The translations under genes were made by a program, and so were the position numbers. DNA of 64,000 nt from Terriglobia bacterium (GTDB taxonomy: Bacteria > Acidobacteriota > Terriglobia > Terriglobales > Acidobacteriaceae): NCBI GenBank assembly GCA_041495845.1, contig JBGQDM010000005.1, positions 472 through 64,471 of the forward strand, written 5' to 3'. The notes beneath the pieces are model-generated. The model ran no database searches. It had not been told where the DNA came from and saw only the letters and a list, made by a program, of their open reading frames with translations. Of this stretch, positions 39,103 through 55,272 are shown piece after piece; position 1 is the first letter of the stretch, and each line of letters opens with the position of its first letter.

Positions 39103-41030
39103 CTTACCTCAAGGGTGCCAACGGTTTCGCTTTCCGGATACAGGTTCCGGATTTCGGCAACGAATTCGGGATCGAGCGAGGGAGAAAACCCTGGCGTTCC
39201 CAGCTGCTTTTTGTCGGTTTGTTCGGGGGTTTTGATCACCACAAGCTTGATCTGATGCACGGCAAGAAATTCGTGGATCCTGGACCTGGGATCGCCTGGC
39301 TCTTCCAGAAAGTCGAACAAAGCGCGCGACGGACTCTTCGATCCGGAGAGGAAGTAGAGTTCGGGCGCATCGGGTGCGGCAAAGATGTATTCACCCTGGC
39401 GATGCTGCTGAATCAGCGAAATCACCCTTTCGTACATTTGACCTTGCGCGGGCTTGACCCGGATTCCGGCGGCACGTGGCAGATGCAATTCGTAGGTCTG
39501 CTGTTCGCCGGTGTTCATCACGCCCATCGCGTTCACGTAGGACGGGGTGACTCGCAACACAAAGAACGCAAGGTAGGTGAGGGCCACGGCGATGCTCAGA
39601 AAGCGGGAGTAGTCAGCATTGGCGGCGATCAGGGCGAACCAGGCGAGTAGGAGGAGCGGGAGAACGTAAACCAGGTAGATCGGCGCGGCGTAGGGATATT
39701 GGATGAGGTTGCACAAAACGGTGGTGGCAACCAGCGCGAAGGCCTGCGCGCTGATTCGGCGGGAGAACGCTGCGACCACGGCGGTTGCCGGGACCAACAA
39801 CACCAGCGCATCCCACAGGAAATGGTAAGTGCCCTTCTGAAACCCGGCGACGACCACGGACGTTGCCAGCAAAACGGCGATAAGAATTTTCGCGTTGCGG
39901 CGGAGCGGCTGGCGCAGATCGCAGGCGGCGACCAGTGTGTAGGTCAGCACTCCGGTGGCGAGCAGCCTCACCCACTTCAAATTGCTTGGTTCGAGCGAAG
40001 CATAGGTCAATCGCTTCGCAGAGAACACAAAGACGCCCTGGAACCAGCTGAGCAGCGAGCCGGTGGCAGCGTAAGGAACCAGGAACAGGACCACGGGTGC
40101 GGCAAAGCCGCCGAGGAGAGCGAGCGCATCGCCAAAGAGACGACGGAAGCGCCGGCTCGGGGCAGTGTAAGTGGCAGCGAATTCCCGCCAGACCAGTAAT
40201 GACACCAAGGCCACACCGGGGATCACGAAGTGGATCCAGTAGCGGGGGGCATGGTTCCAGTGGATGAGTCGCACGAGAAGAAAGACGAAAACAGCGGACG
40301 CGGTGATTGCCACCAAGTTGAAAACGTTCGGGGCAGACCGCTGGTCGGAGCGGCGGTCGAGTTCCTGTTCGCGATAGAGCAGAAACAGCAGTGCGGCGGC
40401 GAGAAAGTAGAGCCCGGCGATCTTGGCGAGGAAAGAGAGCCCGCTGCACCCGCCGGCCACCACCAGCCAGCGACGACTGCCCGACTCCGTGATGCGAGAT
40501 TCGGTGCAGCGAGACTCGGTGAAGCGAAAAAGAGCGAGTACGCCGAATGTAGCAAAGAAGAGGTTGTACCAGGACGGGACCGCCTCGGAGTAATTGGGCA
40601 AACTCATCGCGATGGCGAGCAGCGTGGCCAACGCCGCGGCGCGCTCCGAAGCGAAGCGGCGGGCGAGGTTGAAGACGGCTGGGATCCAGGCAAGAAACAA
40701 CAGGAACACCGGGTAGCGAATCGCGACCAGATTTACGCCGAACACTCGCATGGTGGCGGCGTTCAGCAGGGTCAGGCCACCGCTGTAGAGATCAATGAAA
40801 TCGCGGTGCGGCAGTTCTCCGCGCAGCACGCGCTCGGCGGCCAGCGCGTAGGCGCCAGCATCATGCGGAATCCAACCTCGCTTCAGATAAACGCCACCGT
40901 AGAGTGCTCCCACCGCCAGCAAGGCGCAAACAATCAGCCAGCTCTGCGTCGAATACGGGCGCGGTAGGGACTTCGTGATCTCGGTGCCGGAGCCGATCAC
41001 GCCGGTGTTTGCGGAAGCGGAAGTCGCCAT
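39090..41030 (-). CDS. GT-C fold membrane glycosyltransferase (ArnT/PMT-like)
   Basis: 646 aa with more than 10 predicted TM helices. The first periplasmic loop (HDAGAYALAAERVLRGELPHRDFIDLYSGG) resembles the ArnT/PMT_2 family. Confidence 0.7.
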   Translation of the reverse strand: MATSASANTGVIGSGTEITKSLPRPYSTQSWLIVCALLAVGALYGGVYLKRGWIPHDAGAYALAAERVLRGELPHRDFIDLYSGGLTLLNAATMRVFGVNLVAIRYPVFLLFLAWIPAVFNLARRFASERAAALATLLAIAMSLPNYSEAVPSWYNLFFATFGVLALFRFTESRCTESRITESGSRRWLVVAGGCSGLSFLAKIAGLYFLAAALLFLLYREQELDRRSDQRSAPNVFNLVAITASAVFVFLLVRLIHWNHAPRYWIHFVIPGVALVSLLVWREFAATYTAPSRRFRRLFGDALALLGGFAAPVVLFLVPYAATGSLLSWFQGVFVFSAKRLTYASLEPSNLKWVRLLATGVLTYTLVAACDLRQPLRRNAKILIAVLLATSVVVAGFQKGTYHFLWDALVLLVPATAVVAAFSRRISAQAFALVATTVLCNLIQYPYAAPIYLVYVLPLLLLAWFALIAANADYSRFLSIAVALTYLAFFVLRVTPSYVNAMGVMNTGEQQTYELHLPRAAGIRVKPAQGQMYERVISLIQQHRQGEYIFAAPDAPELYFLSGSKSPSRALFDFLEEPGDPRSRIHEFLAVHQIKLVVIKTPEQTDKKQLGTPGFSPSLDPEFVAEIRNLYPESETVGTLEVRWKP

Positions 41031-41590
41031 GGATTGTCCGCAAAGCTAGCCGGAGGGATGGAAGTTGTCAACGGAGCGCTCGAGCAGCGGAAGCGCGGTG
41101 GTGGCCTTTCTGTCCCCGCCTCGCGCATTGGCTGAATTCGGTGGTGCGAACATTCTGCCTCCCACCCTTGCAAAAAACGCAAGGATGGGGCACCCCCAGG
41201 GTTGCTGGTGCACGCGAAATTCAAGATCAAGGGTGGGCCACCCGCCAAGGCGCAGACAATCAGCCAGCTCTGCGTCGAATACGGGCGCGGTAGGGACCGG
41301 GTGATCTCGGTGCCGTAGCCGATCGCGCCAGTGGTTGCGGAAGCGGAAGTCGCCATGGATTGTCCGCAAAGCTAGCGGTAGGGCGGGAAGTTGTCAACGG
41401 AGCAGGCTGGCAGCGGCGGGCTTCCCGCCGGCGCCTCGCGCCTTCGCTGCATTCGCGGTGCGAAGATTCTGCCTCCCGCCCTTTGCAAAGTGCGCAAAGA
41501 ACGAGGCACCCACGGGTTTGGTGGTGCAAACGAAATTCAAAATCTAAGGGCGGTCCACCCCGCCAAGAGTCAAGGGCGGTCCACCCGCCC
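40921..41590. repeat. Tandem, diverged ~326-bp duplication of the 5' end plus upstream region of the GT-C gene
   Basis: Unit A is 40921-41246 and unit B is 41247-41572, followed by a partial extra gggcggtccacccgcc. The first ~120 bp match best, and both units keep an ATG plus about 37 codons (MATSASA.TG.IG.GTEIT.SLPRPYSTQSWLIVCAL). Confidence 0.8.
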
Positions 41591-42496: not shown

Positions 42497-42603
42497 TCGC
42501 TCCCCTTGATCCGCCCGCGGGTTCTCCGCATTCCACGCACGCCCGCGCTGTTAGCTAAGTGGTAACGATGTAGCAGTTTGCACTTCTGTATGGCTATCCC
42601 CCC

Positions 42604-42617
42604 TCAGCTTCATTGAC
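42604..42617. repeat. Left target-site duplication of the casposon (tcagcttcattgac)
   Basis: Identical 14-mer at 55224-55237, each abutting the outer end of a TIR. Confidence 0.85.
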
Positions 42618-42760
42618 GGGTTGTTGTATGGCGACGGCAAAAGTGCTACACGTTACCAGTTGGTAATCGTTGGTGGGAGCCGGGGTGCGCGCGCGGGCGG
42701 AGTGAGAGCGCGCTGGCGAGTGGGGCGGGGCTCGGGCGGGTGAGAGCGGGCGCTGCGTGG
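42618..42760. repeat. Left terminal inverted repeat
   Basis: The reverse complement equals 55081-55223 at 140/143 positions (hand alignment). All mismatches are at the inner end. Confidence 0.9.
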
Positions 42761-42772
42761 TTTAATGCTGAG

Positions 42773-45700
42773 CTATGCGCCGGGCATCATTAGCGCAGGG
42801 TCCGTAACCTCGATTGTGTCCGCGCCAGCGCCTTTAGCAGAAAACACCGGAGTAAACGTGACCTCTTCTCCAACCTGCAACATCAGTTTGCCCAACCTAG
42901 ACGCCGGGCAGAAAAAACGAGGGTAATCCTTGTTCTCGATGAAGCAATATCCCGGCCTTACCGCTGCCACTCTCCCTTTGAGTCGGAGCGGCTTCACCCT
43001 ATCGGAACCTCTAGGACGAAAATACACCTTATTTGACTCGACATTAGAAAAGTTGCGTCTAGCACACTCCGCGAACACTTCCTGCGCATCACTGAACTGG
43101 CTGTTCATAAAAAGCATCCCGCCGAGCACTGCAATGTAACGTGGATCACGAAAACCGTAAAGGCTTCCGATCCGAATGGTGCTGATTGCCGTACTGTACG
43201 ATTCGCCCGTTCCTAGTAACGCAAGCGCATAAACAATGCAAGCACGGTACTCATCGGGTTCGGAAATCACTGCAGGCTTGATGACTTCTATTGTCTTTTG
43301 GGGCTCGTTCCTCTGCAAGTAGACGCGCCCCAGAACGTAGCGCGCTATGTTTCCCTCTTTGTCAGCCCGAACCGCCCGCTCTAATTCATAAATGCGCTCC
43401 GGATCGTTTCCCAAAAACTCTTGCACTTGTGCAGAAACAAGAAGTAAAGACTCGCGACTGTTGATTGACCGCAACCCTTCACTAATAATCTGTTCACATT
43501 TCGACAGGTACTCTGCCGAATCACCCTTCTCGCGCTTTGCCCAGTCCAAATACAGCGTCGCCAGGCCCGAATAGGCAAACTCGTCCTTGCTGGACATCGA
43601 CAAGCACTGCCGGAAGGACCTTTCCGCTTGAAGCAGTCTCTTTCGGCCTATTTCAACGCTAGCCGTTGTACGTGCAAGCTGCGCCAGGATCAATCCTTTT
43701 GTGTGGTGAAGAACCCGAACATCCTTACTGATTTCAATGGCGCTGTCGATCTGGCCAAGCGCCAATTCCGGCCTTCCTTCGTGCAGCAACATGCGGGCGT
43801 AATGCTGCTTGACATAGGGGCTTTGCGGGTCCTTCTTGCAGGCAGCTTCGAAAAATCTGGTTTTGCCGTCAAAACTGCTCAGGCTTGCGACGACGTTGTC
43901 AGATCGCACAAATTGTTCAAATGCGCTTTGATCTGCTCCATAGTTGAGGTTTAGCGCTTCGATTGATCGTTGAAGAAGGTTCTCTTTTTCAGCTGAATCG
44001 CCGCAACGCTCCCAAACGATTGCCGCAATAGCCCTGTGCCGCGCTCTCCCGCCGTACCGCCCGAGTGTCGAATCAATCAGATCATAGATAACAACCCCTT
44101 CGGTCTGGTTCTTTGTCTCTTCATACATTGTTGCTAGATCGCTACCCAGCAAGCTGGCCAATAAAACGTCGCGGACATACGCGCCGTGTGTGTAAAACCC
44201 GCACACGGCCAAATATAAGCGTCTGGACAGGTCGTTACCGATACCCTTAAATTCATCGATCAGAATTGCATCGAAATTATTGTCTTCCGTTGCTTCGCGA
44301 AGTGTGACCAGCAATTCTTTGCCGTGTTTGCTCTCTATTACTGCAAACTGCATGTCAGGAGTCAGGTTCGCCAGCTTGTTAAGTTCTCCGTTTTGCTTCA
44401 ACGTCTCCAACAGCCGCATTATCTCGGCATCGCTCAGGCTCTCAAGCTCGTACTCCTTAGGGAAATAACGGCCACGTGACTGCCTCCATTCGTTCTTCCT
44501 TTCTCCCATCACTAAGAACGCAGGGCTTTTCAGTCTTCTTAATCGGTCAAAAACCCTGTGGAGGTCGCGCGAATGGTCAGCCGCGTTGTCAACAAAGAAA
44601 AACTTTTTATCTTGCCCAAAAAGAGAAGCTGCGAACTCCAAGTCTCCGTCAATCACCGACGCTCCGGCCTTGTGGTAAAAAATGTGGCCCGCACGATCTG
44701 AAACCAATTGAGTCGCCAGCATGGTCAGCAGTGTTGTTGTTCCATAACCTGCCGGTCCGATAATGATGGCTGAGCCGCTAGAACTGCTGGTGCTTGTATA
44801 AAAATCTAAAAGCTGGTCATAGACTTCTTCCTGAATGTCGCGCTCAAATGGGATTTTCTTAGCAGCCAGCGTCCAGTTTGGCCGATCTCCCCTGAAAAAG
44901 GGTTTCGTGTTGGGCTGTTCACTGAAGTCCGCAGCGTTCACGTATCTCCAGTGAGCGAGCAGCCTCAGGACGGCAGTAGGATTGCGCTCGTATTCATCAG
45001 CGAGAGGGGCCGGAATCTTGTGCTTTGTTTTTCCGAGTAAGTCTATAGTATAAGCTGACTTATCCAGCACAACGGACGCAGTACCGACGAAATCCGCGAA
45101 GCTAGCATCTATCGTTTCCACGCCCTTGCGAGTCAGGATTTCGGCATTTAGAGCTTGTGTACGACGGGCGACCCTGTACGAGGGAAGGAGTGGTGATGGG
45201 TAAAATTCCTGGCGCATTTCCTCCAAGACTAGCTTCCAGTTGGGGTCACGGTTCGAGTAGCCAACGTACAAGATTGTTGAGGTTGCAAACTCCTTCTTTA
45301 GCAGTTCGAACAGCATTCGGCGTGGGTCCCGAAAGGTCACGTAGTCACTCTGGGTGACTACGATGAATGGTTTGCCGATTCCTGAGAAGCGCCCATGCAG
45401 GTGGTAAACGGGAACATCGAAGCGGGGGTCGATTGGGAATAGTTCAGGGGTGATTCCGAAGGGAACGGGCTTCAACGGAGGACTTGGGTTCAAGTTGTAA
45501 GCAGTTTCAATAACGTTATCGTAGTTTGTTGTGAAAATCGCCTTCCATCGAATTCTCGTTAGCCATTGAAAAAGTTCGTCGGGCTGGAGGTCGCCAACCT
45601 GCGATTTGATAAAGATCTCAAGCTCAGATCTACCTATCCGGAGTTCAACAATTTCAGCCACTTCCGCCAGATCATATTCGCCGCCGGTGTCAATATTGAA

Positions 45701-45883
45701 CTGTGCAGCCATGCGACGGGCCAATTCCTGCCCATCAGGTGCAGGTTTGCCTTCCTTGTCCAGAATGTGCTCCCCGAGACCTGCGCCCACGAACAATACA
45801 CAGTTCCCGGACTCCAGGGCGGTTCTCAATCCGAGCGGAACGATAACGCTTTCGCTGGCAGAGACGGAGGGTGGTGTTGCCAT
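42773..45883 (-). CDS. SIR2-like domain / STAND-type NTPase / TPR / C-terminal cold-shock-like domain protein (Avs5-like putative anti-phage defence)
   Basis: N-terminal SIR2_2 pattern (CVLFVGAGLG, IFTTNYDNVIE, VYHLHGRF). P-loop-like IIIGPAGYGTTTLL. Long helical/TPR-like C-terminal half. The last ~70 aa (KGRVAAVRPGYCFIENKDYPRFFCPAS...GEEVTF) are CSD-like. Confidence 0.78.
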   Translation of the reverse strand: MATPPSVSASESVIVPLGLRTALESGNCVLFVGAGLGEHILDKEGKPAPDGQELARRMAAQFNIDTGGEYDLAEVAEIVELRIGRSELEIFIKSQVGDLQPDELFQWLTRIRWKAIFTTNYDNVIETAYNLNPSPPLKPVPFGITPELFPIDPRFDVPVYHLHGRFSGIGKPFIVVTQSDYVTFRDPRRMLFELLKKEFATSTILYVGYSNRDPNWKLVLEEMRQEFYPSPLLPSYRVARRTQALNAEILTRKGVETIDASFADFVGTASVVLDKSAYTIDLLGKTKHKIPAPLADEYERNPTAVLRLLAHWRYVNAADFSEQPNTKPFFRGDRPNWTLAAKKIPFERDIQEEVYDQLLDFYTSTSSSSGSAIIIGPAGYGTTTLLTMLATQLVSDRAGHIFYHKAGASVIDGDLEFAASLFGQDKKFFFVDNAADHSRDLHRVFDRLRRLKSPAFLVMGERKNEWRQSRGRYFPKEYELESLSDAEIMRLLETLKQNGELNKLANLTPDMQFAVIESKHGKELLVTLREATEDNNFDAILIDEFKGIGNDLSRRLYLAVCGFYTHGAYVRDVLLASLLGSDLATMYEETKNQTEGVVIYDLIDSTLGRYGGRARHRAIAAIVWERCGDSAEKENLLQRSIEALNLNYGADQSAFEQFVRSDNVVASLSSFDGKTRFFEAACKKDPQSPYVKQHYARMLLHEGRPELALGQIDSAIEISKDVRVLHHTKGLILAQLARTTASVEIGRKRLLQAERSFRQCLSMSSKDEFAYSGLATLYLDWAKREKGDSAEYLSKCEQIISEGLRSINSRESLLLVSAQVQEFLGNDPERIYELERAVRADKEGNIARYVLGRVYLQRNEPQKTIEVIKPAVISEPDEYRACIVYALALLGTGESYSTAISTIRIGSLYGFRDPRYIAVLGGMLFMNSQFSDAQEVFAECARRNFSNVESNKVYFRPRGSDRVKPLRLKGRVAAVRPGYCFIENKDYPRFFCPASRLGKLMLQVGEEVTFTPVFSAKGAGADTIEVTDPALMMPGA

Positions 45884-45943
45884 CTATTCGCCTCAAACGG
45901 AGGATGATAGCAGAATACGCCTGGCGCGTGAGGAAGGGTCAAG

Positions 45944-47470
45944 TTAGGCTTCTTGGGGCCACAGGCTAACGAGCTGTGCCAGTGCGTGCCAGTGCCTGGG
46001 ATGCGGACGCCGCCTGCCTGCGCGGATGTCGGTCGCATAGGGGAGCGAGATGCCCAGCGTTGATGCAATTGCGGACACGGGGAAGTCTCGGAGGGCGGGC
46101 TGAATCTTTTCCTGGTATCCGCTCTCGGTCAGCCAATTTGGATGTTCTGAGGGCTGCCAGGCCTTCAGTGCGGCGGCATGACGGAGGCGGCTGGCTGAGC
46201 GTAGGGCTTCTGCCTCCGGAGTATGCGTGGCTACTCGCCCGAGCCGCGCAATCTCGATCATTCTCTTGCTGGCCTCAGCCCCGGCACACGAAGCGCAATG
46301 GATCTTTCCTTCCTTGAGTGCGACGCCGCAAGTGCGACAAATCTTCTCGGGTGCTGGAGCTGGTTTCGTGACAGGCGCGTACGCTTCGCCTCTTGCTTCG
46401 CTTCGGTGGCGCTGCGTCAAGCGCGTAGCGGGAACGCTCTTGCGCGCGGCTTTGGAAGTGGAACTCCAGAGCGCGCGAGCAACCCACTCAGCTAGTGGTG
46501 CAACGGCACGACCCCAAGTAGGCGCAGTTTCGGATAGTCGGGTGGCGAATGACCCGATGAGGCGGCAGTTGCCATCTCGCCGCTCGAAGAACCATTCCCG
46601 CTTGAGCGGTTGGCGGGTGATCCAGTCCAGCAGGAATGCGTCTACCTGAGGTCGGACCGGCTCCATGAGATCGCAAGCGAGGCTGTCGCGGTTCGGGGTG
46701 TCAACATGCAACATTCCAAGACCGGGATCGAGTCCAAGAGCCGCCGCCGCAAGGCGAGCTTCGGATTCCAACAGCCCGTAGAGGAAGTTCAACATGGCCC
46801 CGGACGGGTTCGCTGCCAGTCGCGGCGATCCCGAGAGGGGAGACTGACGGGTTCCGAAGGTTCGCCAGTGGCCAGGTACACGCGGCATGTCGTTCTTCGG
46901 AAAACTAATTGGGAGATCGCGCCACGCGGACCAGTAGACGGCACCGGCCTGGGCTTCGACCAAGCGAACTGCCGGAATGGTTTCCGCATTCGCCAGTTGA
47001 CTGCGAAGATTGGAGATCTCATCGGCGCTTTCAGAATCGAGCAGCTTTTCGCGGACGACTTTTTCCTGCCCAAGAAGTTTTTGGGAGATCAACTCCCGCG
47101 CGATGCGTTGGGCATCGCCGGAGTGAATCGCCAACGCTTGCGCGCGTCGCAGGCGGGCATCGGAAGGGCGAACGGGCCCCGTGGTGGCCAGCACCGAGCC
47201 GTCGCGTTCCAGCATTACGAAAGCTGCGTCCTGGTCGGCAAGCCAGCGCAGCGCTTCAAGTGTGATGAAGCCGTCGCTCCCAATCATGACCAGCCTCTTT
47301 AGGCCGTGATTCACGCGGGGCAAGCGAATTGTCCGGCGCTCGTCCGCGATTCCATCGTGCAAAAGTAAATGCCCGGCATGAACCTGGACGCGGATGCCGT
47401 AGCCATTCAAGACCAGCACGCCAGATTTGCGGATGGCGGAGGACTGAGGTAGGTTTTGCGAAGCCGTCAT
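45944..47470 (-). CDS. cas1: Stand-alone Cas1-family integrase (casposase) with C-terminal zinc ribbon and HTH
   Basis: Cas1 signature: VEAQAGAVYWSAW (Glu), NPSGAMLNFLYGLLESEARLAAAALGLDPGLGMLHVD (His), SLACDLMEPVRPQVD (Asp/Glu). C-terminal CRTC...CASC and an HTH-like LGISLPYATDIRAG. The start at 47470 has a GGAGAG RBS. Confidence 0.85.
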   Translation of the reverse strand: MTASQNLPQSSAIRKSGVLVLNGYGIRVQVHAGHLLLHDGIADERRTIRLPRVNHGLKRLVMIGSDGFITLEALRWLADQDAAFVMLERDGSVLATTGPVRPSDARLRRAQALAIHSGDAQRIARELISQKLLGQEKVVREKLLDSESADEISNLRSQLANAETIPAVRLVEAQAGAVYWSAWRDLPISFPKNDMPRVPGHWRTFGTRQSPLSGSPRLAANPSGAMLNFLYGLLESEARLAAAALGLDPGLGMLHVDTPNRDSLACDLMEPVRPQVDAFLLDWITRQPLKREWFFERRDGNCRLIGSFATRLSETAPTWGRAVAPLAEWVARALWSSTSKAARKSVPATRLTQRHRSEARGEAYAPVTKPAPAPEKICRTCGVALKEGKIHCASCAGAEASKRMIEIARLGRVATHTPEAEALRSASRLRHAAALKAWQPSEHPNWLTESGYQEKIQPALRDFPVSAIASTLGISLPYATDIRAGRRRPHPRHWHALAQLVSLWPQEA

Positions 47471-47555
47471 GGAGGTTTCTCTCCTTCGGCGGTCAGGGCT
47501 GTTCGTCTGCTCCAACAGGCGGGCAGCCCGTATAAACTGTTGATAAGTATACTAC

Positions 47556-47567
47556 TTAGGTACCTAA
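47556..47567. promoter_or_regulatory. Perfect 12-bp palindrome ttaggtacctaa in the divergent cas1 / HTH-polB control region
   Basis: Self-complementary 12-mer inside the 312-bp divergent intergenic region 47471-47782. Confidence 0.3.
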
Positions 47568-47782
47568 AGTACACCCATTAACACATGCCTTTCCGGAACT
47601 TGCGTCCAATCACGTCGAGGTTTATCCTTGTGTTCTGCGGTACAGGTCCTTGGCCATTAAAGAGAACCTTTGGGGTAAGAACTACCGCCTCTAGGTCTTG
47701 GACTAAAGAATTGGGCATCACTGGATAGGACAGAGCCCAGCCATCGGACACCGCCCGTGGCACTTCACGTTGAGGTGCTGCG

Positions 47783-48010
47783 GTGTCTTCAAGATCCACG
47801 ATCCCAATCCTCACAGAACACAAGATTCTTCTGAGTCGCCAGGAGGCCGCGCAGCTACTCGGCATCAGCTGGCGCATGTTGGACGAGCTCGTGAAGCGGG
47901 GCGAGATTCGCATCCGCCGCGTGGGCGGTCCCATTCGCGGTCGTGTTCTGTTTTCCAGACTTGAGCTACAGCGATTTGCGGAAGGAACTGAAACTTCGAA
48001 CAGGGGGTAA
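47783..48010 (+). CDS. Excisionase/MerR-type helix-turn-helix DNA-binding protein
   Basis: LLSRQEAAQLLGISWRMLDELVKRGEIRIRRVG is the HTH_17-like pattern. GTG start. Confidence 0.6.
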   Translation: MSSRSTIPILTEHKILLSRQEAAQLLGISWRMLDELVKRGEIRIRRVGGPIRGRVLFSRLELQRFAEGTETSNRG

Positions 48011-48016
48011 CTTCTC

Positions 48017-48562
48017 GTGGCGCGCAAACAGCGCGAGCGCCAGAAGGCCCCCAGCAAGGTTTCTTCTAGCGCCCGCAATACCAAAACTCGGCTCATTTTA
48101 CCATCCCGACTCTCCGAGCGCAGCTTCGCTGCCCGTGATCGTGCCATGCACGTCCTGGGGGATATGCGGCATGGCGCTTCGCTTTCGCGTGCTGCCCGCG
48201 ATCATGGAGTAAGCGTACGAACAATCAGACGCTACGTCGGCGGGGCGCTCTTACAAGAGCGTGCGGGCGGGAGAATCCGCGCGACCAAAAGCGACCGCTT
48301 TGTCCGCTACCTGCAACTCCCAGGCCGGCTCGGACCCATCGAACAAAGGGTTCGCGGATCAAGACAGGCTAGTGAAGCCGCGAGATACAAGGCAGCGCTC
48401 AACAGGCGCCTTCGCGGTGACCGTGGCGCGCTCGCGCCTTGGCACGGAAAGAAGATCGCGGGCATTGAACTCATAACAGACGCGGCCACTCTGAAGAGCC
48501 TCGCCGAGAGAGATCTCCTTCCTTACTCTCTCTACCGATCCCTTTCTGGCGGTGGGGCATGA
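48017..48562 (+). CDS. Hypothetical protein with HTH segment
   Basis: ASLSRAARDHGVSVRTIRRYV is an HTH-like segment. The gene is in an operon with the flanking genes, with a 4-nt overlap downstream. Confidence 0.5.
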   Translation: MARKQRERQKAPSKVSSSARNTKTRLILPSRLSERSFAARDRAMHVLGDMRHGASLSRAARDHGVSVRTIRRYVGGALLQERAGGRIRATKSDRFVRYLQLPGRLGPIEQRVRGSRQASEAARYKAALNRRLRGDRGALAPWHGKKIAGIELITDAATLKSLAERDLLPYSLYRSLSGGGA

Positions 48563-48855
48563 TCGCACTCAGCGGAGTGTCGCGTCGTTCCCGTGGGTGC
48601 TGTGTTTTCTGCGGATCGCGAAAACAACTCCAAGAGCACCATCTCGGCGGTCGCAACCACGCCCGTCACTTCACAATCACCCTCTGCCGTGAACATCACG
48701 AAGCAGTCACGCTCGCTATCACCAGAGCGGGGGTAAACATGCGCTATACCAGCGACAAAATGGAACGCTCAAGGCGCGCGCGCCAAGCCGCATACGTGTT
48801 TCTTTGGTTCCTGGATGACATCGTTTTCACACCAACCTGCGAGGAGACAGCATGA
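48559..48855 (+). CDS. HNH-like endonuclease-fold protein
   Basis: CVFCGSRKQLQEHHLGGRNHARHFTITLCREHHEAV matches the pattern CxxC...HH...N...CxxHH. Confidence 0.55.
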   Translation: MIALSGVSRRSRGCCVFCGSRKQLQEHHLGGRNHARHFTITLCREHHEAVTLAITRAGVNMRYTSDKMERSRRARQAAYVFLWFLDDIVFTPTCEETA

Positions 48856-49052
48856 TGAACAACGGGCGAGTCGAGCACGTTTTAACGCAGCGACTGGAAG
48901 ACGGCTACGTGCGAACGCTGTGCGGGAGAATCATTTTCAGGCCAAACCCTATAGAGACATACCGTGAACCAACATATTTCAGGTACAACCATCCAAATTG
49001 CCAAGACTGCTTGCGGAAGCACTTCGCCAAGACTGGAAGAAAACATGACTGA
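48852..49052 (+). CDS. Small hypothetical protein (66 aa, Cys/His-containing)
   Basis: Translationally coupled on both sides (ATGA at 48852-48855, ATGACTGA at 49045-49052). No known motif. Confidence 0.4.
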   Translation: MMNNGRVEHVLTQRLEDGYVRTLCGRIIFRPNPIETYREPTYFRYNHPNCQDCLRKHFAKTGRKHD

Positions 49053-51963
49053 CAAAACACACGATATCTTCGTGCGGGCCTTGGCGGTCACCGCGAAACA
49101 GACAACGAAGAACACTGGAAGGCCAGCTTCCGAAGACAAGCCAAAGTGGGCGGAACATGCCCTTGTGTTTGATACAGAGACACGCATCACTGCCGATCAA
49201 TCTCTTACTTTCGGCGTGTACCGGTTGTGCTCGTTGGCGAACGGAATTTACAAGTTCACCGAAGAGGGTATTTTCTATGCTGACGATCTGCCATCGAAAG
49301 AGCGGAAGGTGCTACATGCCTACGCGCAAACGGCGGTTTCAGATGCAGCATCCTTCCCGCCGCGATTCCCGCTGTATTCCCGTTCTGAGTTTATGAAACG
49401 CGTCTTCTGGCCACAGATCAAACACAAGAGTGCGCTCATCGTGGGATTCAATCTCCCTTTCGATCTGGCGCGACTCGCGCTGGACTGGAGCAGAGGCAAC
49501 AAGGGCGAATGGTCGCTCACGATGTCACGATATCCAAACGGTACCGAGAACCTAAATTACCCTCGTATTCTCATCACGCCGATTGACAGCAAGAAAGCCT
49601 TCATCCGGCTGGCAACGCCGTGGAAGCCAACGGACTGGAAGAATAACGGCCGCGGTAATTTCCTGGACCTGCGCACGCTCGGCTGGGCGCTCTTCAACAA
49701 AGCGTTTTCGCTCAAGACCCTCTGCGATGAACTCAAGACAGCACAAGAAAAGCTAAACCATGATCCGACGGGTAAGGTCACTCCCGAGGAAATCGAATAC
49801 GCCCGCCAGGACGTTCGCTGCACCGTGGACGCGCTCAACGCGCTGAAGCGGGAGTTTGATAAACACCCCATCGACCTGAAACCCTCCGATACGTACTCCC
49901 CAGCATCCGTAGCCAAAGCCTACCTGGACGAGATGGGAATCATCAGGCCAGCTGAGAAGTTCAATGTTTCTGATGAAATGCTCGGAATTACCATGCAGAG
50001 CTATTACGGAGGTCGCTCCGAAACTCGCATCCGCTGCTGTGAGGTGCCCGTCGTGCCCGTAGATTTCACCAGCGAATATCCGAGCTGTTGCGCGCTCTTA
50101 GGTCTATTCGACGTTCTCACAGCTGCGAGTGTGAGCTTTGATGACGATACCGAGAAGGTACGGGGATTTCTAAAACGCGTCACTCTCAAACGCTGTCTTG
50201 ATCCGGAATTGTGGGGGCACCTCAGGTTCTTCGCCTTGGTGCAACCTGAGAACGACATCCTGCCCGTGCGCACGATGTACAACGAAGTCACGCGAAATAT
50301 CGGGAACAACTACCTCACATCCGACACGCCGATATGGTTTGCCGGCCCCGACCTGATTGCATCCATGCTCCGCACAGGCAAAATCCCGCACATCATCCGC
50401 GCGATCCGCATGGTACCGCATGGCAAGCAGGCCGGAATGCGAAGTGTAAACCTCCGTGGCATGGTTGAAATTGATCCGTACAAGGACGATCTATTTTGTA
50501 AAGCAATCGAACAACGGAAACTGCACAAATCCGACGGATCGCTCCATTACTGGCTGAAGATCTTCGCGAACTCCATATACGGGTTTTTCGTTGAACTGAA
50601 CCCGGAAATTCAGGGCAAGCCCGCACCGCTCACAGTCTATTCGGGGGAGAAGACATTTCGGGACCACTCGGATGTCGTCGAGAATCCCGGTCGCTGGTTC
50701 TTTCCCCCGTTAGCCTCACTCATCACCTCCGGCGGCCGTCTGCTGCTCGCCATAGCAGAGTCGAATGTGGAAGAGAAGAAAGGCGCATATCTGTTCTGCG
50801 ATACGGATTCTCTCGCAATCGTAGCTTCCCAGACGGGAGGGGATCTCCGCATTCCAGGCAGTAAGGGTGTCAGGGTTCTTTCGTGGGCCGAAGTGCAGTC
50901 CATCGTTGACAAGTTCGCTGCCCTGAATCCATACGACCGGAAGCTCGTGAAAGGCTCAATCCTAAATCTTGTGAATGCAAACTACGTTGACTCAGACCCG
51001 CAAAACCCGCAGCGGCAGTTGTACGGGTACAGCATTGCAGCGAAGCGCTATGCCCTTTACGAGAGGATAGGCAAGAACGACATCAAGATCGTCGATCCGA
51101 AAGCGCATGGCATTGGGTTCTTGTATCCACCGAAAGACTCGCCGAAAGACTGGAAAGAAGATGTTCCGCAATGGATTTACGAAATGTGGGACTACGTGCT
51201 GCGTGGCGCTCTCAAGCTAAAACGCAAATCCCCGTCTTGGCTGGATATTCCACAAATGATGCGCCTGACGATCACTACGTACAACGTTTTGAAAATGCTC
51301 GGACAATGGGAAGACGCTCGCCCGTACAACTTCCTGTTCTTGCCGATGGTCGACCCAACCTTTGGTTACGCGTTTTACCGACGGGCAAACGACAAAATTC
51401 TGCTGGTCGCCCCATTTTCGTCTAAGCAGGAGCGCTGGTTTGCAACGGAGTGTGTGAATATTCACAACGGCAAGAAGTACCGAATGGTGGACTGCACCAA
51501 AGAAAAGAAGCCGCCGTACAACGTGGTCTTTCCTTCGCAATTCGCCCGCCTGGTAATCGAATACCAGGAGCATCCCGAGGCGAAGAGCCTTGCGCCTGAT
51601 GGCACGCCGTGCAAGGCGCAGACGCGTGGGCTTCTACGGCGGGCGCACATAACAGCCGGTGAGTTTCGCTATGTGGGCAAAGAAACAGATCGCAAATGGG
51701 AAGAAGGCGACGACGTCAGTGTGTTGGAATTCAGCACTACCGAATACGGCAGGGCGAAAAGCGTAGTCGCTGACCCTTCGATACGCGATGAAATTCGGAC
51801 GATCGGCGTCCGCAAGACGATGGAATTGACGAAAATGAGTCAGCACACGATAGAAAAGCTGGTTCGTGGCGAAGCCGTGAAGCGCAAAACTCGCGAGCAC
51901 GTACTGAAAGCACTTCAAGCATGCAAAGTGCTCATGGAGTTTGCGAACCAAAACCGCAGATAG
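49045..51963 (+). CDS. polB: Family-B DNA polymerase with 3'-5' exonuclease domain
   Basis: Exo I LVFDTET, Exo II GFNLPFDLARL, Exo III YARQDVRCT, YxGG (SYYGGRSE), motif A DFTSEYPS, motif B KIFANSIYGF, motif C LFCDTDSLA, KxY (AAKRYALY). The start was moved to the ATG at 49045. Confidence 0.9.
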   Translation: MTDKTHDIFVRALAVTAKQTTKNTGRPASEDKPKWAEHALVFDTETRITADQSLTFGVYRLCSLANGIYKFTEEGIFYADDLPSKERKVLHAYAQTAVSDAASFPPRFPLYSRSEFMKRVFWPQIKHKSALIVGFNLPFDLARLALDWSRGNKGEWSLTMSRYPNGTENLNYPRILITPIDSKKAFIRLATPWKPTDWKNNGRGNFLDLRTLGWALFNKAFSLKTLCDELKTAQEKLNHDPTGKVTPEEIEYARQDVRCTVDALNALKREFDKHPIDLKPSDTYSPASVAKAYLDEMGIIRPAEKFNVSDEMLGITMQSYYGGRSETRIRCCEVPVVPVDFTSEYPSCCALLGLFDVLTAASVSFDDDTEKVRGFLKRVTLKRCLDPELWGHLRFFALVQPENDILPVRTMYNEVTRNIGNNYLTSDTPIWFAGPDLIASMLRTGKIPHIIRAIRMVPHGKQAGMRSVNLRGMVEIDPYKDDLFCKAIEQRKLHKSDGSLHYWLKIFANSIYGFFVELNPEIQGKPAPLTVYSGEKTFRDHSDVVENPGRWFFPPLASLITSGGRLLLAIAESNVEEKKGAYLFCDTDSLAIVASQTGGDLRIPGSKGVRVLSWAEVQSIVDKFAALNPYDRKLVKGSILNLVNANYVDSDPQNPQRQLYGYSIAAKRYALYERIGKNDIKIVDPKAHGIGFLYPPKDSPKDWKEDVPQWIYEMWDYVLRGALKLKRKSPSWLDIPQMMRLTITTYNVLKMLGQWEDARPYNFLFLPMVDPTFGYAFYRRANDKILLVAPFSSKQERWFATECVNIHNGKKYRMVDCTKEKKPPYNVVFPSQFARLVIEYQEHPEAKSLAPDGTPCKAQTRGLLRRAHITAGEFRYVGKETDRKWEEGDDVSVLEFSTTEYGRAKSVVADPSIRDEIRTIGVRKTMELTKMSQHTIEKLVRGEAVKRKTREHVLKALQACKVLMEFANQNRR

Positions 51964-52174
51964 TCTGTAGTTATATCTCGCAGGACTATTCTTTCGCGGG
52001 AAATGAATAACAATGGAAAGGCTCTCCCGCTTTATTAGTTAGCTTGGTAAATTTATCACCTTTTATAGAGAAACCAACGCCCGTTGCTACATTCAGCTGG
52101 ATCGAAAGAAGTCTATATTCACGCTGTCCCTGTGCCCCTGATCCGAGGAGCATGGTCGAGCCGGGAATGTCTTC

Positions 52175-52204
52175 CGCGCTGGCGGGGGCGGGGCTCGGGC
52201 GGGG
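52175..52204. repeat. Internal partial copy of the inner TIR segment (same orientation as left TIR)
   Basis: cgcgctggcg-ggggcggggctcgggcggg matches 42709-42740 at 29 nt, apart from a 3-nt indel. Confidence 0.6.
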
Positions 52205-52216
52205 AAGGTTCTAAGT

Positions 52217-52250
52217 CGCCACGGATTGTACGGATGAACACGGATTGAAG
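52217..52250. repeat. cacggat-type dispersed repeat copy inside the casposon
   Basis: cgccacggattgtacggatgaacacggattgaag matches the chromosomal copies at 8177-8207 and 21801-21836. Confidence 0.6.
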
Positions 52251-52253
52251 AAA

Positions 52254-52285
52254 GGCCACCAGGAATGGTGGCCGTTTCCTTTTTG
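52254..52285 (+). terminator. Rho-independent terminator downstream of the polB operon
   Basis: ggccacca-ggaa-tggtggcc followed by gtttcctttttg. Confidence 0.5.
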
Positions 52286-52371
52286 TAGATTGCAGAGGTC
52301 GGGGTTGACTGAATCGGCGAGGGCGGTGAGCGGCTGTGATCCACTCCGCTGCCGCCCCGCCGATGGCTGGT

Positions 52372-52854
52372 TTAGTGGAGAGTGCAGCTCCCCTGATTGA
52401 GGGAGTCGAAGACCCCGGCCAGGCCGGTCATCAAGTTGCGATTGTCGGTGGCGATGGCGTCGTCAATCGTGGTGTTGGTCTTATTGGTGAACGGGGCCAA
52501 AGCGTTGCAGGCCGCAGGACTTGAGTTCCCGGCATTGGCCAGTCGCACGATGGCCTGGCGGAGCAGGATGACCTCAGCGCCGGCAAAGGTGCTGCCGTCA
52601 CCACAGACGGTGGTGGGCGAAAGCAGCAGTTGCAAGAAGGTCAGCGCGCCCACGCAGGCGTCAACGTTCGGAAAGACCGAACTCACCAAGGTGTCCTTAT
52701 TGAAAACATTGTTGGCGCAGGGACCGCTGTTGAGGAACTGGGAGTGGTTTTTGTAAAAACCAACGGTGCAGTGCTGGTTCACATTGGCAGACGCGGGCAG
52801 CGCGACGCCAAGGATGAAGAGGAAGCAAAGCGTCAGCAAGATCCGGTTTTTCAT
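52372..52854 (-). CDS. Secreted cysteine-rich hypothetical protein (casposon cargo)
   Basis: Signal peptide MKNRILLTLCFLFILGVALPASA. Seven Cys in the mature part. No known domain. Confidence 0.55.
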   Translation of the reverse strand: MKNRILLTLCFLFILGVALPASANVNQHCTVGFYKNHSQFLNSGPCANNVFNKDTLVSSVFPNVDACVGALTFLQLLLSPTTVCGDGSTFAGAEVILLRQAIVRLANAGNSSPAACNALAPFTNKTNTTIDDAIATDNRNLMTGLAGVFDSLNQGSCTLH

Positions 52855-53389
52855 TTTTTAGAAGCTCCTGGAAGAGTATTTTCGATTTACAAAATGTCGA
52901 AGGACGCTGGGGCGCGGTTGCATCTACGGCGAGGGCCTACATTGGCGGGGATTATGCAACGGATGGGAAGGGCTGTCAACGTGCAGATTGTTGCACAGGG
53001 AAAGCTGGGCGGGGGGGTCGCGCCCAATGGCGTTGCTTTTGCAGGGGGTTGCGGGGAGGGAGACGCTCATCCCTGAATTCCCGCAGGAGCTGCTTTAGGG
53101 ACTCAATTGTTGTCTTGGAGTCTGAATCCATGCGAGTAATTCTGCCACACTGATGCGGGCCGTGCGCCGAAAACAGCTCGCCAGCAATACTTCCAGACTT
53201 TCGCGGAGGACGCTCTACCCCCAGATGCCACTAGCCGACGCGCTGAAATCGAGGGTGAGAGCACACAGCGAATGCAGCCAGGTTGGATTCTCTTCAACGC
53301 ATTGCGACCTGAGTACCTAGCTCCCTCGGCCCCGTGAGTAGACCACGGGCGTGACGGAAAAACCCTATGCCTTGCGTCGACCATTGTTG

Positions 53390-54994
53390 CTACGGTGGCA
53401 CTTGCTTGAAACGCAGCCGCCCGATGCGAGAGCCCCAGAAACCCCCGTCGATAACCTTTTCGTTCACAAACCAAGCGTTGCCTTGCGGATCAACGGCGAC
53501 AGAGGAATAGTCGCCCCACCGTTGGCCAAAGGCACCGTCAAAACTATTAGTGATGCACGTCGAACTGGTAAAAACGGGGATGCCATTCCCGAGGCTCCCA
53601 ACTGGAGCAGACGCGCGTTTTCCCGCAAATCGGACATCCGCATTGCGATTGAGGCTTGTATCGATCGAAGTCCATGTCACGTAAATGTTGTTATCCGCAT
53701 CCGCTGCAATTGAGGCATTGAAATCATTACTTGTACTCGCGCGGGCGAAAAATATCCCGCTATCGACGAGTGTGTGCGTGCTGGTGTCGATCTTGTAAAA
53801 CTTGGGAGTAGCCAGGCCGCTGACATTGATGGTATGGGTTTGATAAAGGAACCTTCCCACTTGGGTGCTAGCATTCGTAAACCGAGCGTCAAATGTTTCG
53901 ACCAAGTTCCTGGGGGCATCGCCGCAGGGGGAGGGTTGTGGCGCATTGGGCGGAATCGTATACGGAGCCACTGGAACCTCGAAGGGCCCTGTCACGTCAG
54001 CAGCGGATGGACGACTGGAGTCTGTCAGCGCGTATAGATAGAGGACGTTATTCTCTGGAGTCGCGGCAATCAAATATGTGTTCGGGTTTTGGTCTGACAC
54101 GATAGGTGGCGCCAGAGTGGCCTGGAGTCCGGAAAAACGCGCGATCGAAAACTCCATCCCGTTATAGAGCCTCGCCTTAGCGATCGTGAACAGCTCCGCA
54201 CCAGCGAAATTCGCGGACAAAGGGTTGCCCGTGATGATGATGGAGTCCTGATCCATACCGAGTTGCGGGAAATCCAAAAACGCATTGTTGTCCAAGGCGC
54301 TGACTTCGATGTTGTAGATCCAATATGGGCCAGTCGCATCGCCTGTTTTTGAAACCGCCACGAACATGGGTTGTACAAAATCCGGCGGGAAAGCATAACT
54401 GATCGATATAACAACCCAGCGATCCCAGATCGGATCGTGCAGGACACGCGAGTCGGCGGTAAACGAGGTGTTTCCGTAAAAAGCTGCTAGCCCACTCTCG
54501 AAAAGCAATGCGCCCGACGCCTTGTCGTATATGTCAATAGCATGGTTCGTGACCTCGACGTATTGAGTGTTCCCCGCAGCTCCATGGGTGTCCGGTGGAT
54601 GAGCCGCCGCATAATGTTGATCTGTCCCGTCAAAATTGAGAGAGGCATCAAGGACAACGCCGCCACCAGTTGCCAGCGGAACCGCACTGGGTAGGGAACG
54701 AGGGGTTCGTTTCATTGAACGAGCGGCGGCCTTCAGCGCTCGGTATTTCTCCAAAGGAATCGTCAGGTGGTTGTGCAGCTCGATCTCCGGTCCGGGCTTT
54801 GCATAGGTTTGCGCGTCTTTACGCATCTGGTTCTGATCGCGCGACACTGCCGCCGCGACACTCATCGTTACTCTACGCACCTTCCGATCATTGACCTGGC
54901 CGGCCGCGAAGACGTTCGCTCGAATGCAAGTCAAAAGCAGAACAATAGCAATCGCAGCCCAACTCGGGGCGATCCGGGGAACCAGTCTTGACAT
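53390..54994 (-). CDS. Secreted hypothetical protein, possibly beta-propeller-like (casposon cargo)
   Basis: Signal/TM segment APSWAAIAIVLLLTCIRANVFA. Long ORF, with the start placed at the ATG at 54994. No recognised catalytic motif. Confidence 0.55.
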   Translation of the reverse strand: MSRLVPRIAPSWAAIAIVLLLTCIRANVFAAGQVNDRKVRRVTMSVAAAVSRDQNQMRKDAQTYAKPGPEIELHNHLTIPLEKYRALKAAARSMKRTPRSLPSAVPLATGGGVVLDASLNFDGTDQHYAAAHPPDTHGAAGNTQYVEVTNHAIDIYDKASGALLFESGLAAFYGNTSFTADSRVLHDPIWDRWVVISISYAFPPDFVQPMFVAVSKTGDATGPYWIYNIEVSALDNNAFLDFPQLGMDQDSIIITGNPLSANFAGAELFTIAKARLYNGMEFSIARFSGLQATLAPPIVSDQNPNTYLIAATPENNVLYLYALTDSSRPSAADVTGPFEVPVAPYTIPPNAPQPSPCGDAPRNLVETFDARFTNASTQVGRFLYQTHTINVSGLATPKFYKIDTSTHTLVDSGIFFARASTSNDFNASIAADADNNIYVTWTSIDTSLNRNADVRFAGKRASAPVGSLGNGIPVFTSSTCITNSFDGAFGQRWGDYSSVAVDPQGNAWFVNEKVIDGGFWGSRIGRLRFKQVPP

Positions 54995-55080
54995 ATGCTT
55001 CACCTCATACTGGCCGGACATGCGGAGGGAAACCGTGGAGATTCTGCACCCTCGCCTGGTCACTGTCAAGTCCTCGGGGA

Positions 55081-55223
55081 CCGCGCAGCGCCCGCTCTTA
55101 CTCGCCCGAGCCCCGCCCCACTCGCCAGCGCGCTCTCACTCCGCCCGCGCGCGCACCCCGGCTCCCACCAACGATTACCAACTGGTAACGTGTAGCACTT
55201 TTGCCGTCGCCATACAACAACCC
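55081..55223. repeat. Right terminal inverted repeat
   Basis: Reverse complement of 42618-42760 (140/143). Confidence 0.9.
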
Positions 55224-55237
55224 TCAGCTTCATTGAC
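55224..55237. repeat. Right target-site duplication (tcagcttcattgac)
   Basis: Identical to 42604-42617. Confidence 0.85.
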
Positions 55238-55262
55238 CATTGAAATTGCGGCTCACTATACT
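55233..55262 (+). promoter_or_regulatory. Putative sigma70 promoter of the LytTR regulator (TTGACC-N18-TATACT)
   Basis: -35 at 55233-55238, of which five of six bases lie in the TSD. -10 at 55257-55262. The ATG at 55273 implies a very short leader. Confidence 0.45.
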
Positions 55263-55272
55263 CAGAACTGCC

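Follow-up and report, generated by a model that had tools for sequence, protein, structure and literature searches.

The window analyzed here is the whole 64,000-nt stretch of contig JBGQDM010000005.1 (positions 472 to 64,471 of the forward strand) from the Terriglobia bacterium assembly GCA_041495845.1. Its minus-strand gene at 45944–47470 very probably encodes the casposase, that is, the Cas1-family integrase that serves as transposase, of a complete 12,606-bp family 3 casposon (42618–55223) with recent activity in a Terriglobales-like acidobacterium. Protein GlmS, encoded in the flank, is 83–84% identical to proteins named Terriglobales or Acidobacteria. To our knowledge, bacterial (family 3) casposons are known from a handful of genomes, none of which has been studied biochemically, and mechanistic work on casposons is confined to three enzymes, two from archaeal family 2 casposons and one from family 1. 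The window supplies a bacterial element that is intact and clearly delimited, together with a defined 14-bp target and naturally occurring filled and empty sites, and these sequences could serve directly as substrates for integration assays. Its main value lies in this apparently active bacterial casposon with an empty site, and in a large undescribed acidobacterial clade with what appears to be promoter-directed, polar integration.

The minus-strand open reading frame (ORF) covers 45944–47515 and has 523 codons from a TTG; starting at the ATG at 47470, the product has 508 residues. The 508-aa product is the one called on identical contigs in two NCBI metagenome-assembled genomes (MAGs; GCA_041483075.1 and GCA_041490665.1) and two JGI metagenomes, and homologs of the casposase also begin at the position equivalent to this ATG. 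Pfam Cas_Cas1 matches residues 36–319 of the 523-aa form with an E-value of 2e-39. Alignment with 41 sequences from Additional file 2 of Krupovic et al. (2014, PMC4046053) placed E172 (VEAQAG), H255 (GMLH), and D267 and E270 (DLMEPVR) at the positions of E141, H208, D218, and D221 of Escherichia coli Cas1. The four residues are the same in all casposases of the reference alignment and are kept in the homologs. A preliminary description of this DNA, made from the letters alone, had recognized the Cas1 hallmarks in order with an intact catalytic set; the alignment agrees, and none of the four residues is lost.

The Cas1 core (residues ~17–340) is followed by a tail (residues ~340–508) consisting of a disordered linker, a C4 zinc ribbon (C378–C395), a helical segment, and an XRE-type helix-turn-helix (HTH; residues ~449–500). 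Cys378, Cys381, Cys392, and Cys395 are invariant in 62 homologs with 61–72% identity, among which the HTH segment is nearly invariant as well. HTH_31 matches 34 and HTH_3 matches 31 of these 62 proteins, and zinc-ribbon models match up to 18. The extension of about 170 residues, the ribbon, and the HTH-like segment of the preliminary description were thus recovered, with the ribbon spacing corrected from CxxC-x11-CxxC to CxxC-x10-CxxC. Its view of the zinc ribbon as an additional feature does not hold, as a C-terminal zinc-binding domain (ZBD) plus HTH had already been given for the Cas1 of AceAut-C1 (PMC4046053); the element is a family 3 casposon, a known kind, and its zinc-ribbon and HTH architecture was previously published in 2014. 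The AlphaFold model of the casposase has a mean pLDDT (predicted local distance difference test) of 81.6. Beyond the core, it contains a disordered linker (341–368), a small pair of strands that surrounds the four cysteines, two long helices (393–437), and a four-helix HTH region (449–500). The Methanosarcina mazei casposase (6OPM) is the best match in the PDB both by sequence (E = 6e-20) and by fold, with the AlphaFold model as the Foldseek query (E = 2.9e-18, TM score 0.77). An HTH resembling region 4 of sigma factors was considered for the tail and was not supported, as Pfam gives only the XRE-type HTH_31 and HTH_3. The tail was also not found as a free-standing protein: in a tail-only search (1713 representative clusters), the short top matches that were inspected were fragments or decayed copies of this Cas1.

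Comparison with the Krupovic 2014 set places the protein in family 3. The phmmer scores with family 3 members were 249 bits for AceAut-C1, 210 for Saccharopolyspora spinosa (SacSpi), 159 for StrAlb-C1, 143 for NitAL212-C1, and 105 for HenMar-C1, compared with 51–96 bits for family 2 casposases, 32–36 for family 1, 52 for the best CRISPR Cas1, and 11–20 for Cas1-solo group 1. A neighbor-joining tree was built from 274 columns with Kimura distances and 100 bootstraps, using trimmed reference Cas1 cores. The window protein and seven homologs form one clade (bootstrap 100%), which is sister to AceAut-C1 (79%) and lies within family 3 together with AceAut, NitAL212, StrAlb, HenMar, and SacSpi (94%). 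The phylogeny proposed as a check in the preliminary description therefore separates the protein from the CRISPR Cas1 subtypes. Deeper nodes have lower values, with 62% for families 2 and 3 together and only 35% for all casposases as a single clade. The traits of family 3 that are borne out comprise the bacterial host, the Cas1 clade, the intergenic insertion, and the HNH and conserved HTH genes. Family 1 casposons have a protein-primed family B DNA polymerase (PolB) with a terminal-protein gene, and a thaumarchaeal Cas1 clade without extra domains. Membership in this family was rejected in view of the Cas1 score of 32–36 bits, the extra ZBD and HTH on Cas1, and the marginal match of the polymerase to that of phi29 (E = 0.008). 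Cas1-solo group 1, from Methanomicrobiales, was likewise rejected; its catalytic set is incomplete, and that of the window protein is complete.

The ends of the casposon are well defined. Terminal inverted repeats (TIRs) of 144 nt with 98% complementarity lie at 42618–42761 (plus strand, beginning GGGTTGTTGTATGG) and 55080–55223 (minus strand, ending ...CAACAACCC-3'). The element ends finish in CCC-3', and the terminal 20-mer of the TIR is present solely at the two ends of the element. Ends at 42618–42660 and 55181–55223 had been named in the preliminary description; their location stands, and their length falls short of the 144-nt repeat. Directly outside the TIRs is an exact 14-bp direct repeat, TCAGCTTCATTGAC, at 42604–42617 and 55224–55237 (both read on the plus strand), which is the target-site duplication (TSD). 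The last five bases of the right, promoter-proximal copy, TTGAC, are the −35 element of a host promoter. The GC content of the element is 0.50–0.57, compared with ~0.60 in the flanks. Inside the TIR, a perfect palindrome, TTACCAGTTGGTAA, is found at 42655–42668, and units containing GTGAGAGCG recur at 42694–42751 with a period of ~20 nt (Tandem Repeats Finder); both are mirrored in the right TIR and are possible binding sites for the HTH proteins of the element.

Filled and empty alleles of the site occur in one metagenome. A 45.9-kb contig of JGI metagenome 3300053057 (locus L092), found via a 158-aa protein encoded to the left of the element, matches the window from 55347 to 55221 at 100% and then directly from 42617 to 38609 at 99.78%, with a single copy of the 14-bp sequence. 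A second contig of the same metagenome (L004) is 100% identical to the window over 42503–55347, and a third (L008) breaks exactly at the element junction. Such a polymorphism would be expected in a mixed population after a recent insertion or a precise loss. Because one metagenome contains both the occupied site and its precise unoccupied counterpart, the element is considered to have moved recently.

The casposase belongs to a large group of acidobacterial elements. At least 382 related loci were found in species-representative genomes (one genome per GTDB species), and the locus counts in this study refer to the best 80 of them. The protein database holds well over 100 proteins with 61–72% identity and equal length to the casposase, and more than 2,400 relatives of its PolB. 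All of the best 80 loci are titled Acidobacteriota except one, and the groups represented are Terriglobales, Acidobacteriaceae, Acidiferrales, Sulfotelmatobacter, Korobacteraceae, and Bryobacterales. The exception (L031, contig CAVXKJ010000003.1) is a typical clade member binned as ‘Candidatus Micrarchaeota archaeon’, a label that is more probably due to a binning error than to an archaeal host. Several genomes carry at least two copies of the element. The core layout, Cas1 facing HTH-(HNH)-PolB, is found in 74 of the 80 loci: PolB lies beside Cas1 in those 74, a homolog of the 181-aa HTH protein occupies the same position in 61 (tblastn), and an HNH homolog is detectable in 32. Many of the relatives' polymerases are truncated or frameshifted. 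A search of a plasmid collection returned no PolB relatives, and its Cas1 matches were only type I-C CRISPR Cas1 with ~30% identity. Published family 3 casposons comprise a handful of proteobacterial, actinobacterial, and Acetothermia elements. No report of casposons in Acidobacteria was found in a literature search, and their abundance in this phylum (at least 382 loci) appears to be recorded here for the first time.

Three other accounts of the gene were weighed against a mobile casposon. The JGI annotation reads ‘CRISPR-associated endonuclease Cas1’, the generic TIGR00287 cas1 cutoff is passed, and the catalytic residues are those of Cas1, all of which would suit an orphan adaptation Cas1, either left over from a degraded CRISPR-Cas locus or acting in trans on an array elsewhere. 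However, no subtype-specific NCBIfam Cas1 cutoff is passed, each of these models being missed by hundreds of bits; scores with CRISPR Cas1 are at most 52 bits, against 249 with a casposase; and the gene is enclosed by TIRs and a TSD together with PolB. For the 10 kb to the left and the 10 kb to the right, the precomputed Pfam calls list neither cas2 nor any other cas gene, in line with the lack of Cas2 noted in the preliminary description, and no CRISPR-like array was found within the 64-kb window. We therefore regard an orphan CRISPR Cas1 as extremely improbable. It is very unlikely, too, that the protein is a domesticated, immobile Cas1-solo in a defense island, partnering the neighboring SIR2-STAND-TPR protein, with the inverted repeats as relics. 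The cas1 gene does adjoin this NLR-like SIR2-STAND gene in the same orientation, and many related copies have decayed elsewhere (truncated PolB, Cas1 fragments), but none of the 80 related loci has the SIR2-STAND gene, which is therefore variable cargo, not a partner. In addition, the 144-nt TIRs have 98% identity, the two TSD copies match perfectly, the core ORFs are all intact, precise empty and filled sites occur in one sample, and the Cas1-solo group 1 proteins, with their incomplete active site, score just 11–20 bits.

The island could also be mobilized by another enzyme, namely the excisionase-like HTH protein with an unrecognized recombinase, or the HNH nuclease, leaving Cas1 a different role such as end processing. 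A 75-aa excisionase-family HTH gene adjoins cas1 and an HNH nuclease is encoded, yet no tyrosine or serine recombinase domain and no DDE or HUH transposase domain was detected in the tested ORFs of the element with Pfam and NCBIfam. Moreover, a 14-bp staggered duplication combined with TIRs ending in CCC-3' is the casposase signature (PMC6977970), whereas site-specific recombination leaves att repeats, and Cas1 is the sole gene found in all 80 loci. This account is highly improbable. The transposase role that the preliminary description had preferred over CRISPR adaptation is supported by the family 3 Cas1, the TIRs, the TSD, the PolB gene, and the precise empty site.

Several points nevertheless weigh against the interpretation as an active casposon. 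We know of no family 3 casposase for which biochemical activity has been shown. Every sequence derives from MAGs or metagenomes, and the Cas1 phylogeny is a neighbor-joining tree of trimmed reference cores, not a maximum-likelihood tree. The PolB is very divergent, with only weak Pfam and PDB matches and an AlphaFold2 model with a pLDDT of 52. Between the distal TSD copy and ATAGCC, the filled allele has GGGGGG and the empty allele GGGG (L092 1–300 compared with window 42598–42617 and L004 12730–12750), and a simple 14-bp duplication does not account for these 2 nt.

The sites occupied by the relatives point to a common type of target. TIRs and TSDs were resolved in 34 of the 65 loci that were long enough to test (80 fetched), the direct repeats next to the TIRs being found by self-comparison with no prior assumption on their sequence; 32 sites were used in the target analysis. 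The TIRs of the 34 loci are 33–500 nt long, and all begin with GGG(G). After orientation, the 14-bp duplication starts with GTCA(A/G), so that the other strand ends with (T/C)TGAC, in 31 loci and the window; L010 carries a TTGTC variant, and L088 does not fit. On the promoter strand, TAnnnT (mostly TAnACT) lies 18–19 nt past TTGAC in 31 of the 32 sites, compared with 4.1% of 2,917 TTGAC occurrences in the same DNA (binomial P ~3e-42). The sites form 17 groups whose flanks are unrelated to one another. In the window, the insertion is intergenic, 36 bp upstream of the ATG (55273) of a response-regulator gene identified as LytTR by Pfam. The sigma-70-type promoter of this gene, TTGACC-18-TATACT (55233–55262, plus strand), is the integration target and lies outside the element; a promoter scan of the site gave 10 of 12 matches, against 0.1 expected in shuffles. 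A correctly oriented host gene starts 28–300 nt after TTGAC at 24 of the 25 sites examined. From their N-terminal sequences, these target genes presumably include valS-, thrS-, lysS-, and nuoB-like genes and a thiolase gene. Relative to the promoter, the elements lie in one orientation at 21 sites and in the other at 11.

Acidobacterial casposons thus appear, as judged from these sequences, to insert just upstream of sigma-70-type host promoters, which seems not to have been reported. The duplication consists of the −35 TTGAC preceded by 9 bp, and the host promoter is therefore preserved. A tRNA target as in family 2 was rejected: there was no tRNA gene at any insertion site, and no Rfam RNA matched in the six loci searched. 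A hybrid promoter formed by the distal TSD copy and the TIR was also rejected, as no TAnnnT occurs there at the right spacing. In L009, in L053, and at 55262–55275 of the window, the start codon lies only 7–10 nt past the −10 box, which suggests that host mRNAs of these Acidobacteriota have no leader or hardly any.

On balance, we slightly favor the view that the clade is a promoter-homing transposon, the integration machinery of which reads sigma-70-type promoters directly and always cuts 14 bp apart across the −35 TTGAC. The reader of the promoter would be the zinc-ribbon/HTH tail of the casposase, the 181-aa HTH partner, or a contact with promoter-bound RNA polymerase. Alternatively, the enzyme could read TTGAC only, with selection removing the insertions that are not just upstream of a promoter; the preference could then in part represent the survival of harmless insertions and not enzyme specificity, which counts against promoter homing.

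The insertions also show polarity with respect to the promoter. The promoter-distal flank starts with a close match to the TIR terminus of another locus in 10 of the 32 loci, compared with none of the 32 proximal flanks, and several more distal flanks look TIR-like. On contig CAWDNS010000002.1 (L063 and L081, merged, 40.5 kb), three casposons of 11.1, 9.1, and 13.1 kb, each partly decayed and one of them inverted, are bounded by four identical copies of GTCAATGCCAGGAG, with a promoter at one end only. Beyond the fourth GTCAATGCCAGGAG copy, there is another TIR-like start. These arrangements suggest that new copies stack promoter-proximally, giving arrays of up to three elements split by identical 14-bp repeats, a behavior that appears unreported. 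Tandem casposon pairs at one site are known in Methanosarcina (PMC4779613), and a literature search found no description of a consistent promoter-side polarity of casposon arrays. The window probably has the same stacking history. On the host side, a TIR-like remnant (42520–42603) abuts the promoter-distal TSD copy, and its reverse complement aligns with the TIR of the element (GCAAAC-TGCTACATCGTTACCA compared with GCAAAAGTGCTACACGTTACCA). As this segment is TIR-like and is present in the empty allele L092 as well, it is probably the solo TIR of an earlier casposon occupant. Neither a partner arm nor a third TSD copy for it was found in the window.

Casposase-catalyzed integration of the element ends, to which the filled/empty polymorphism points indirectly, would proceed as follows if the enzyme behaves like those of Aciduliprofundum boonei and M. 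mazei. A casposase oligomer would hold both 3'-OH ends of the element (CCC-3'OH), transesterification would join them to target strands 14 bp apart, and gap repair would produce the 14-bp duplication; the PolB of the element would replicate it. Judging from the 32 relatives, the target would be a sigma-70-type promoter and not a random site, and the host promoter would survive at one junction, where it is regenerated as a target. As the promoter-proximal copy of the duplication would be regenerated in this way, new elements would stack beside the promoter. The target would most likely be read by the C-terminal zinc ribbon and HTH, possibly with the 181-aa HTH protein. In the M. mazei casposase, the HTH is essential, and the required target consists of the TSD and ~30 bp on one side (PMC6977970; PMC6614799).

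Among known elements, AceAut-C1 (PMC4046053) has the closest Cas1 core (249 bits and sister in the neighbor-joining tree, as above). It shares with the window element the ZBD and HTH fused at the C-terminus of Cas1 (the tails were compared by the published description, the reference sequence being the Cas1 core), the TIRs, a TSD (15 bp in AceAut-C1), the intergenic insertion, and PolB. It differs in its size of 20 kb, its 602-nt TIRs, and its origin from a thermophile fosmid, the window element being a 12.6-kb casposon with 144-nt TIRs and other cargo from a soil acidobacterium. NitAL212-C1 of Nitrosomonas sp. AL212, also of family 3, resembles the window element in size (14.4 kb), in its 14-bp TSD, and in the combination of Cas1, PolB, HNH, and HTH, and the start of its TIR, GGGGTATG, resembles the GGG(G)TA termini of the acidobacterial clade. 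Its Cas1 is more distant (143 bits) and carries a ZBD and an HTH, but the ZBD is N-terminal (PMC4046053), and its TSD, AGCCGGTACTGCCC, has no TTGAC, unlike that of the window.

The family 2 casposases of M. mazei and A. boonei (Hickman et al. 2020, PMC6977970; Beguin et al. 2019, PMC6614799) include the best structural match, 6OPM. Family 2 casposons share 14–15 bp TSDs, ends in CCC-3' (PMC6977970), the C-terminal HTH of Cas1, which is essential there, and the C-terminal HTH of PolB. They differ in their archaeal hosts, in a Cas1 without a zinc ribbon, and in the low Cas1 similarity of 51–96 bits; their targets are the 3' ends of tRNA genes, whereas those of the window clade are promoters. CRISPR Cas1-Cas2 has in common with the window casposase the catalytic fold and residues and a staggered integration that duplicates the target, in that case the repeat. 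Its insertion is polarized beside the leader with the newest unit nearest that flank, analogous to the promoter-proximal stacking described here. Unlike in CRISPR, there is no Cas2, array, or short spacers; the insert is an element of 9–20 kb, and the duplicated unit is 14 bp. Transcription from the promoter leads away from the casposon inserts, while that from a CRISPR leader runs into the array.

The data present casposons as common in soil Acidobacteriota, with promoters as landing sites and a one-sided piling of elements separated by identical short repeats. If promoter homing is true, it would be a kilobase-scale bacterial counterpart of the leader-proximal, polarized insertion of spacers, and the proposed transition from casposon to CRISPR would become experimentally approachable. 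If the promoter specificity is enzymatic, the way in which a Cas1 integrase recognizes its target would be connected to an adjoining ‘leader’ that carries a promoter, and this connection is a central step that models of how CRISPR arose have yet to explain.

The genes on the strand opposite to cas1 encode two HTH proteins, an HNH nuclease, a short ORF, and PolB. The excisionase/MerR-type HTH protein (75 aa; 47783–48010, plus strand) has a GTG start and uncertain boundaries; it matches Pfam HTH_17 above the cutoff (E = 5e-08) and TIGR01764 with 30.8 bits (cutoff 28.8). The conserved 181-aa HTH protein (48017–48562, plus strand), encoded 5' of HNH and PolB, has weak HTH_23 and HTH_29 matches. 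In the 98-aa HNH-type nuclease (48559–48855, plus strand), CxxC...HH...N...CxxHH can be read in the translation, and there is a weak RecA_dep_nuc match. The 66-aa ORF (48852–49052, plus strand) overlaps the start of polB and is assigned no function; it is called as a gene on identical contigs and has a homolog in only 2 of the 80 loci. The 181-aa and 98-aa genes are called by one JGI annotation only (L004). An ORF of 189 aa on the minus strand (47578–48147), called on the NCBI and JGI copies, overlaps the HTH genes (47783–48562) in antisense and is probably a miscall.

The PolB protein (972 aa; 49045–51963, plus strand) contains proofreading exonuclease motifs and a C-terminal HTH. In an alignment of 29 diverse homologs (31–74% identity), the residues of ExoI (D43/E45), ExoII (N136/F139/D140), and ExoIII (Y252/D256) are invariant or nearly so, as are those of motif A (D340-S343-Y345-P346), motif B (K505-N509-Y512-G513), motif C (D586-T587-D588-S589, FCDTDS), and the KRY motif (K667-R668-Y669). 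From these motifs, PolB is predicted to be an active, proofreading polymerase. Pfam DNA_pol_B_2 is below the cutoff for the window protein and matches 23 of the 29 homologs (best E = 4e-9). PDB searches gave marginal matches, to phi29 with the single sequence (E = 0.008) and to Pol alpha with the profile (E = 0.017), and Foldseek with the AlphaFold2 model matched only at a TM score of ~0.15, weakly favoring Pol alpha. The signals of polymerase type are thus all weak: the Pfam model is of the protein-primed type, and the profile search and Foldseek indicate Pol alpha. Because the protein is very divergent, with weak matches and a poor model, its priming mode and activity have to be judged from the motifs. 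Motif C, FCDTDS, corresponds to the PolB_CDTDS variant, a group that contains the PolB of the A. boonei casposon (Kazlauskas et al. 2020, PMC7544198). This motif differs by sub-lineage, with CDTDS, EDTDS, TDTDS, and MDTDS forms (L023, L044, L050, L051, L074, L077, and L088; L032, L036, L055, L057, L064, L071, and L080). The C-terminal HTHs of PolB and Cas1 are homologous (hhalign probability 95.9%, E = 5e-9), as was described for family 2 casposons (PMC4046053). Identity to the window proteins is 30–78% for PolB and 57–67% for Cas1, which suggests module exchange or faster evolution of the polymerase.

Between polB and the converging gene of a 160-aa protein lies a bidirectional terminator-like hairpin (52254–52273) with an 8-bp stem, six GC pairs, and T-runs on both strands. 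The cargo genes are all on the minus strand, and their products have no homologs in the 80 related loci except for one weak relative of a 534-aa protein. The 160-aa protein (52372–52854) has an N-terminal signal-like hydrophobic segment and no Pfam, NCBIfam, or PADLOC match. The 534-aa protein (53390–54994) is of a secreted type and matches no family in the same three collections. The largest cargo gene (42773–45883) encodes the 1036-aa SIR2-STAND-TPR protein, which matches Pfam SIR2_2 (E = 5.5e-18), nSTAND_NTPase5 (E = 4e-29), and TPR models. In PADLOC, it matches ThsA-type SIR2 (E = 4e-24) and also Dsr2, and it is a candidate NLR-like anti-phage gene; as cargo, this candidate adds casposons to the vehicles that move defense genes. 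To the left of the casposon, at 41000–41560, there are two tandem copies of a non-coding unit, ~316–326 nt apart and 74–93% identical piecewise (repeat families D1–D10).

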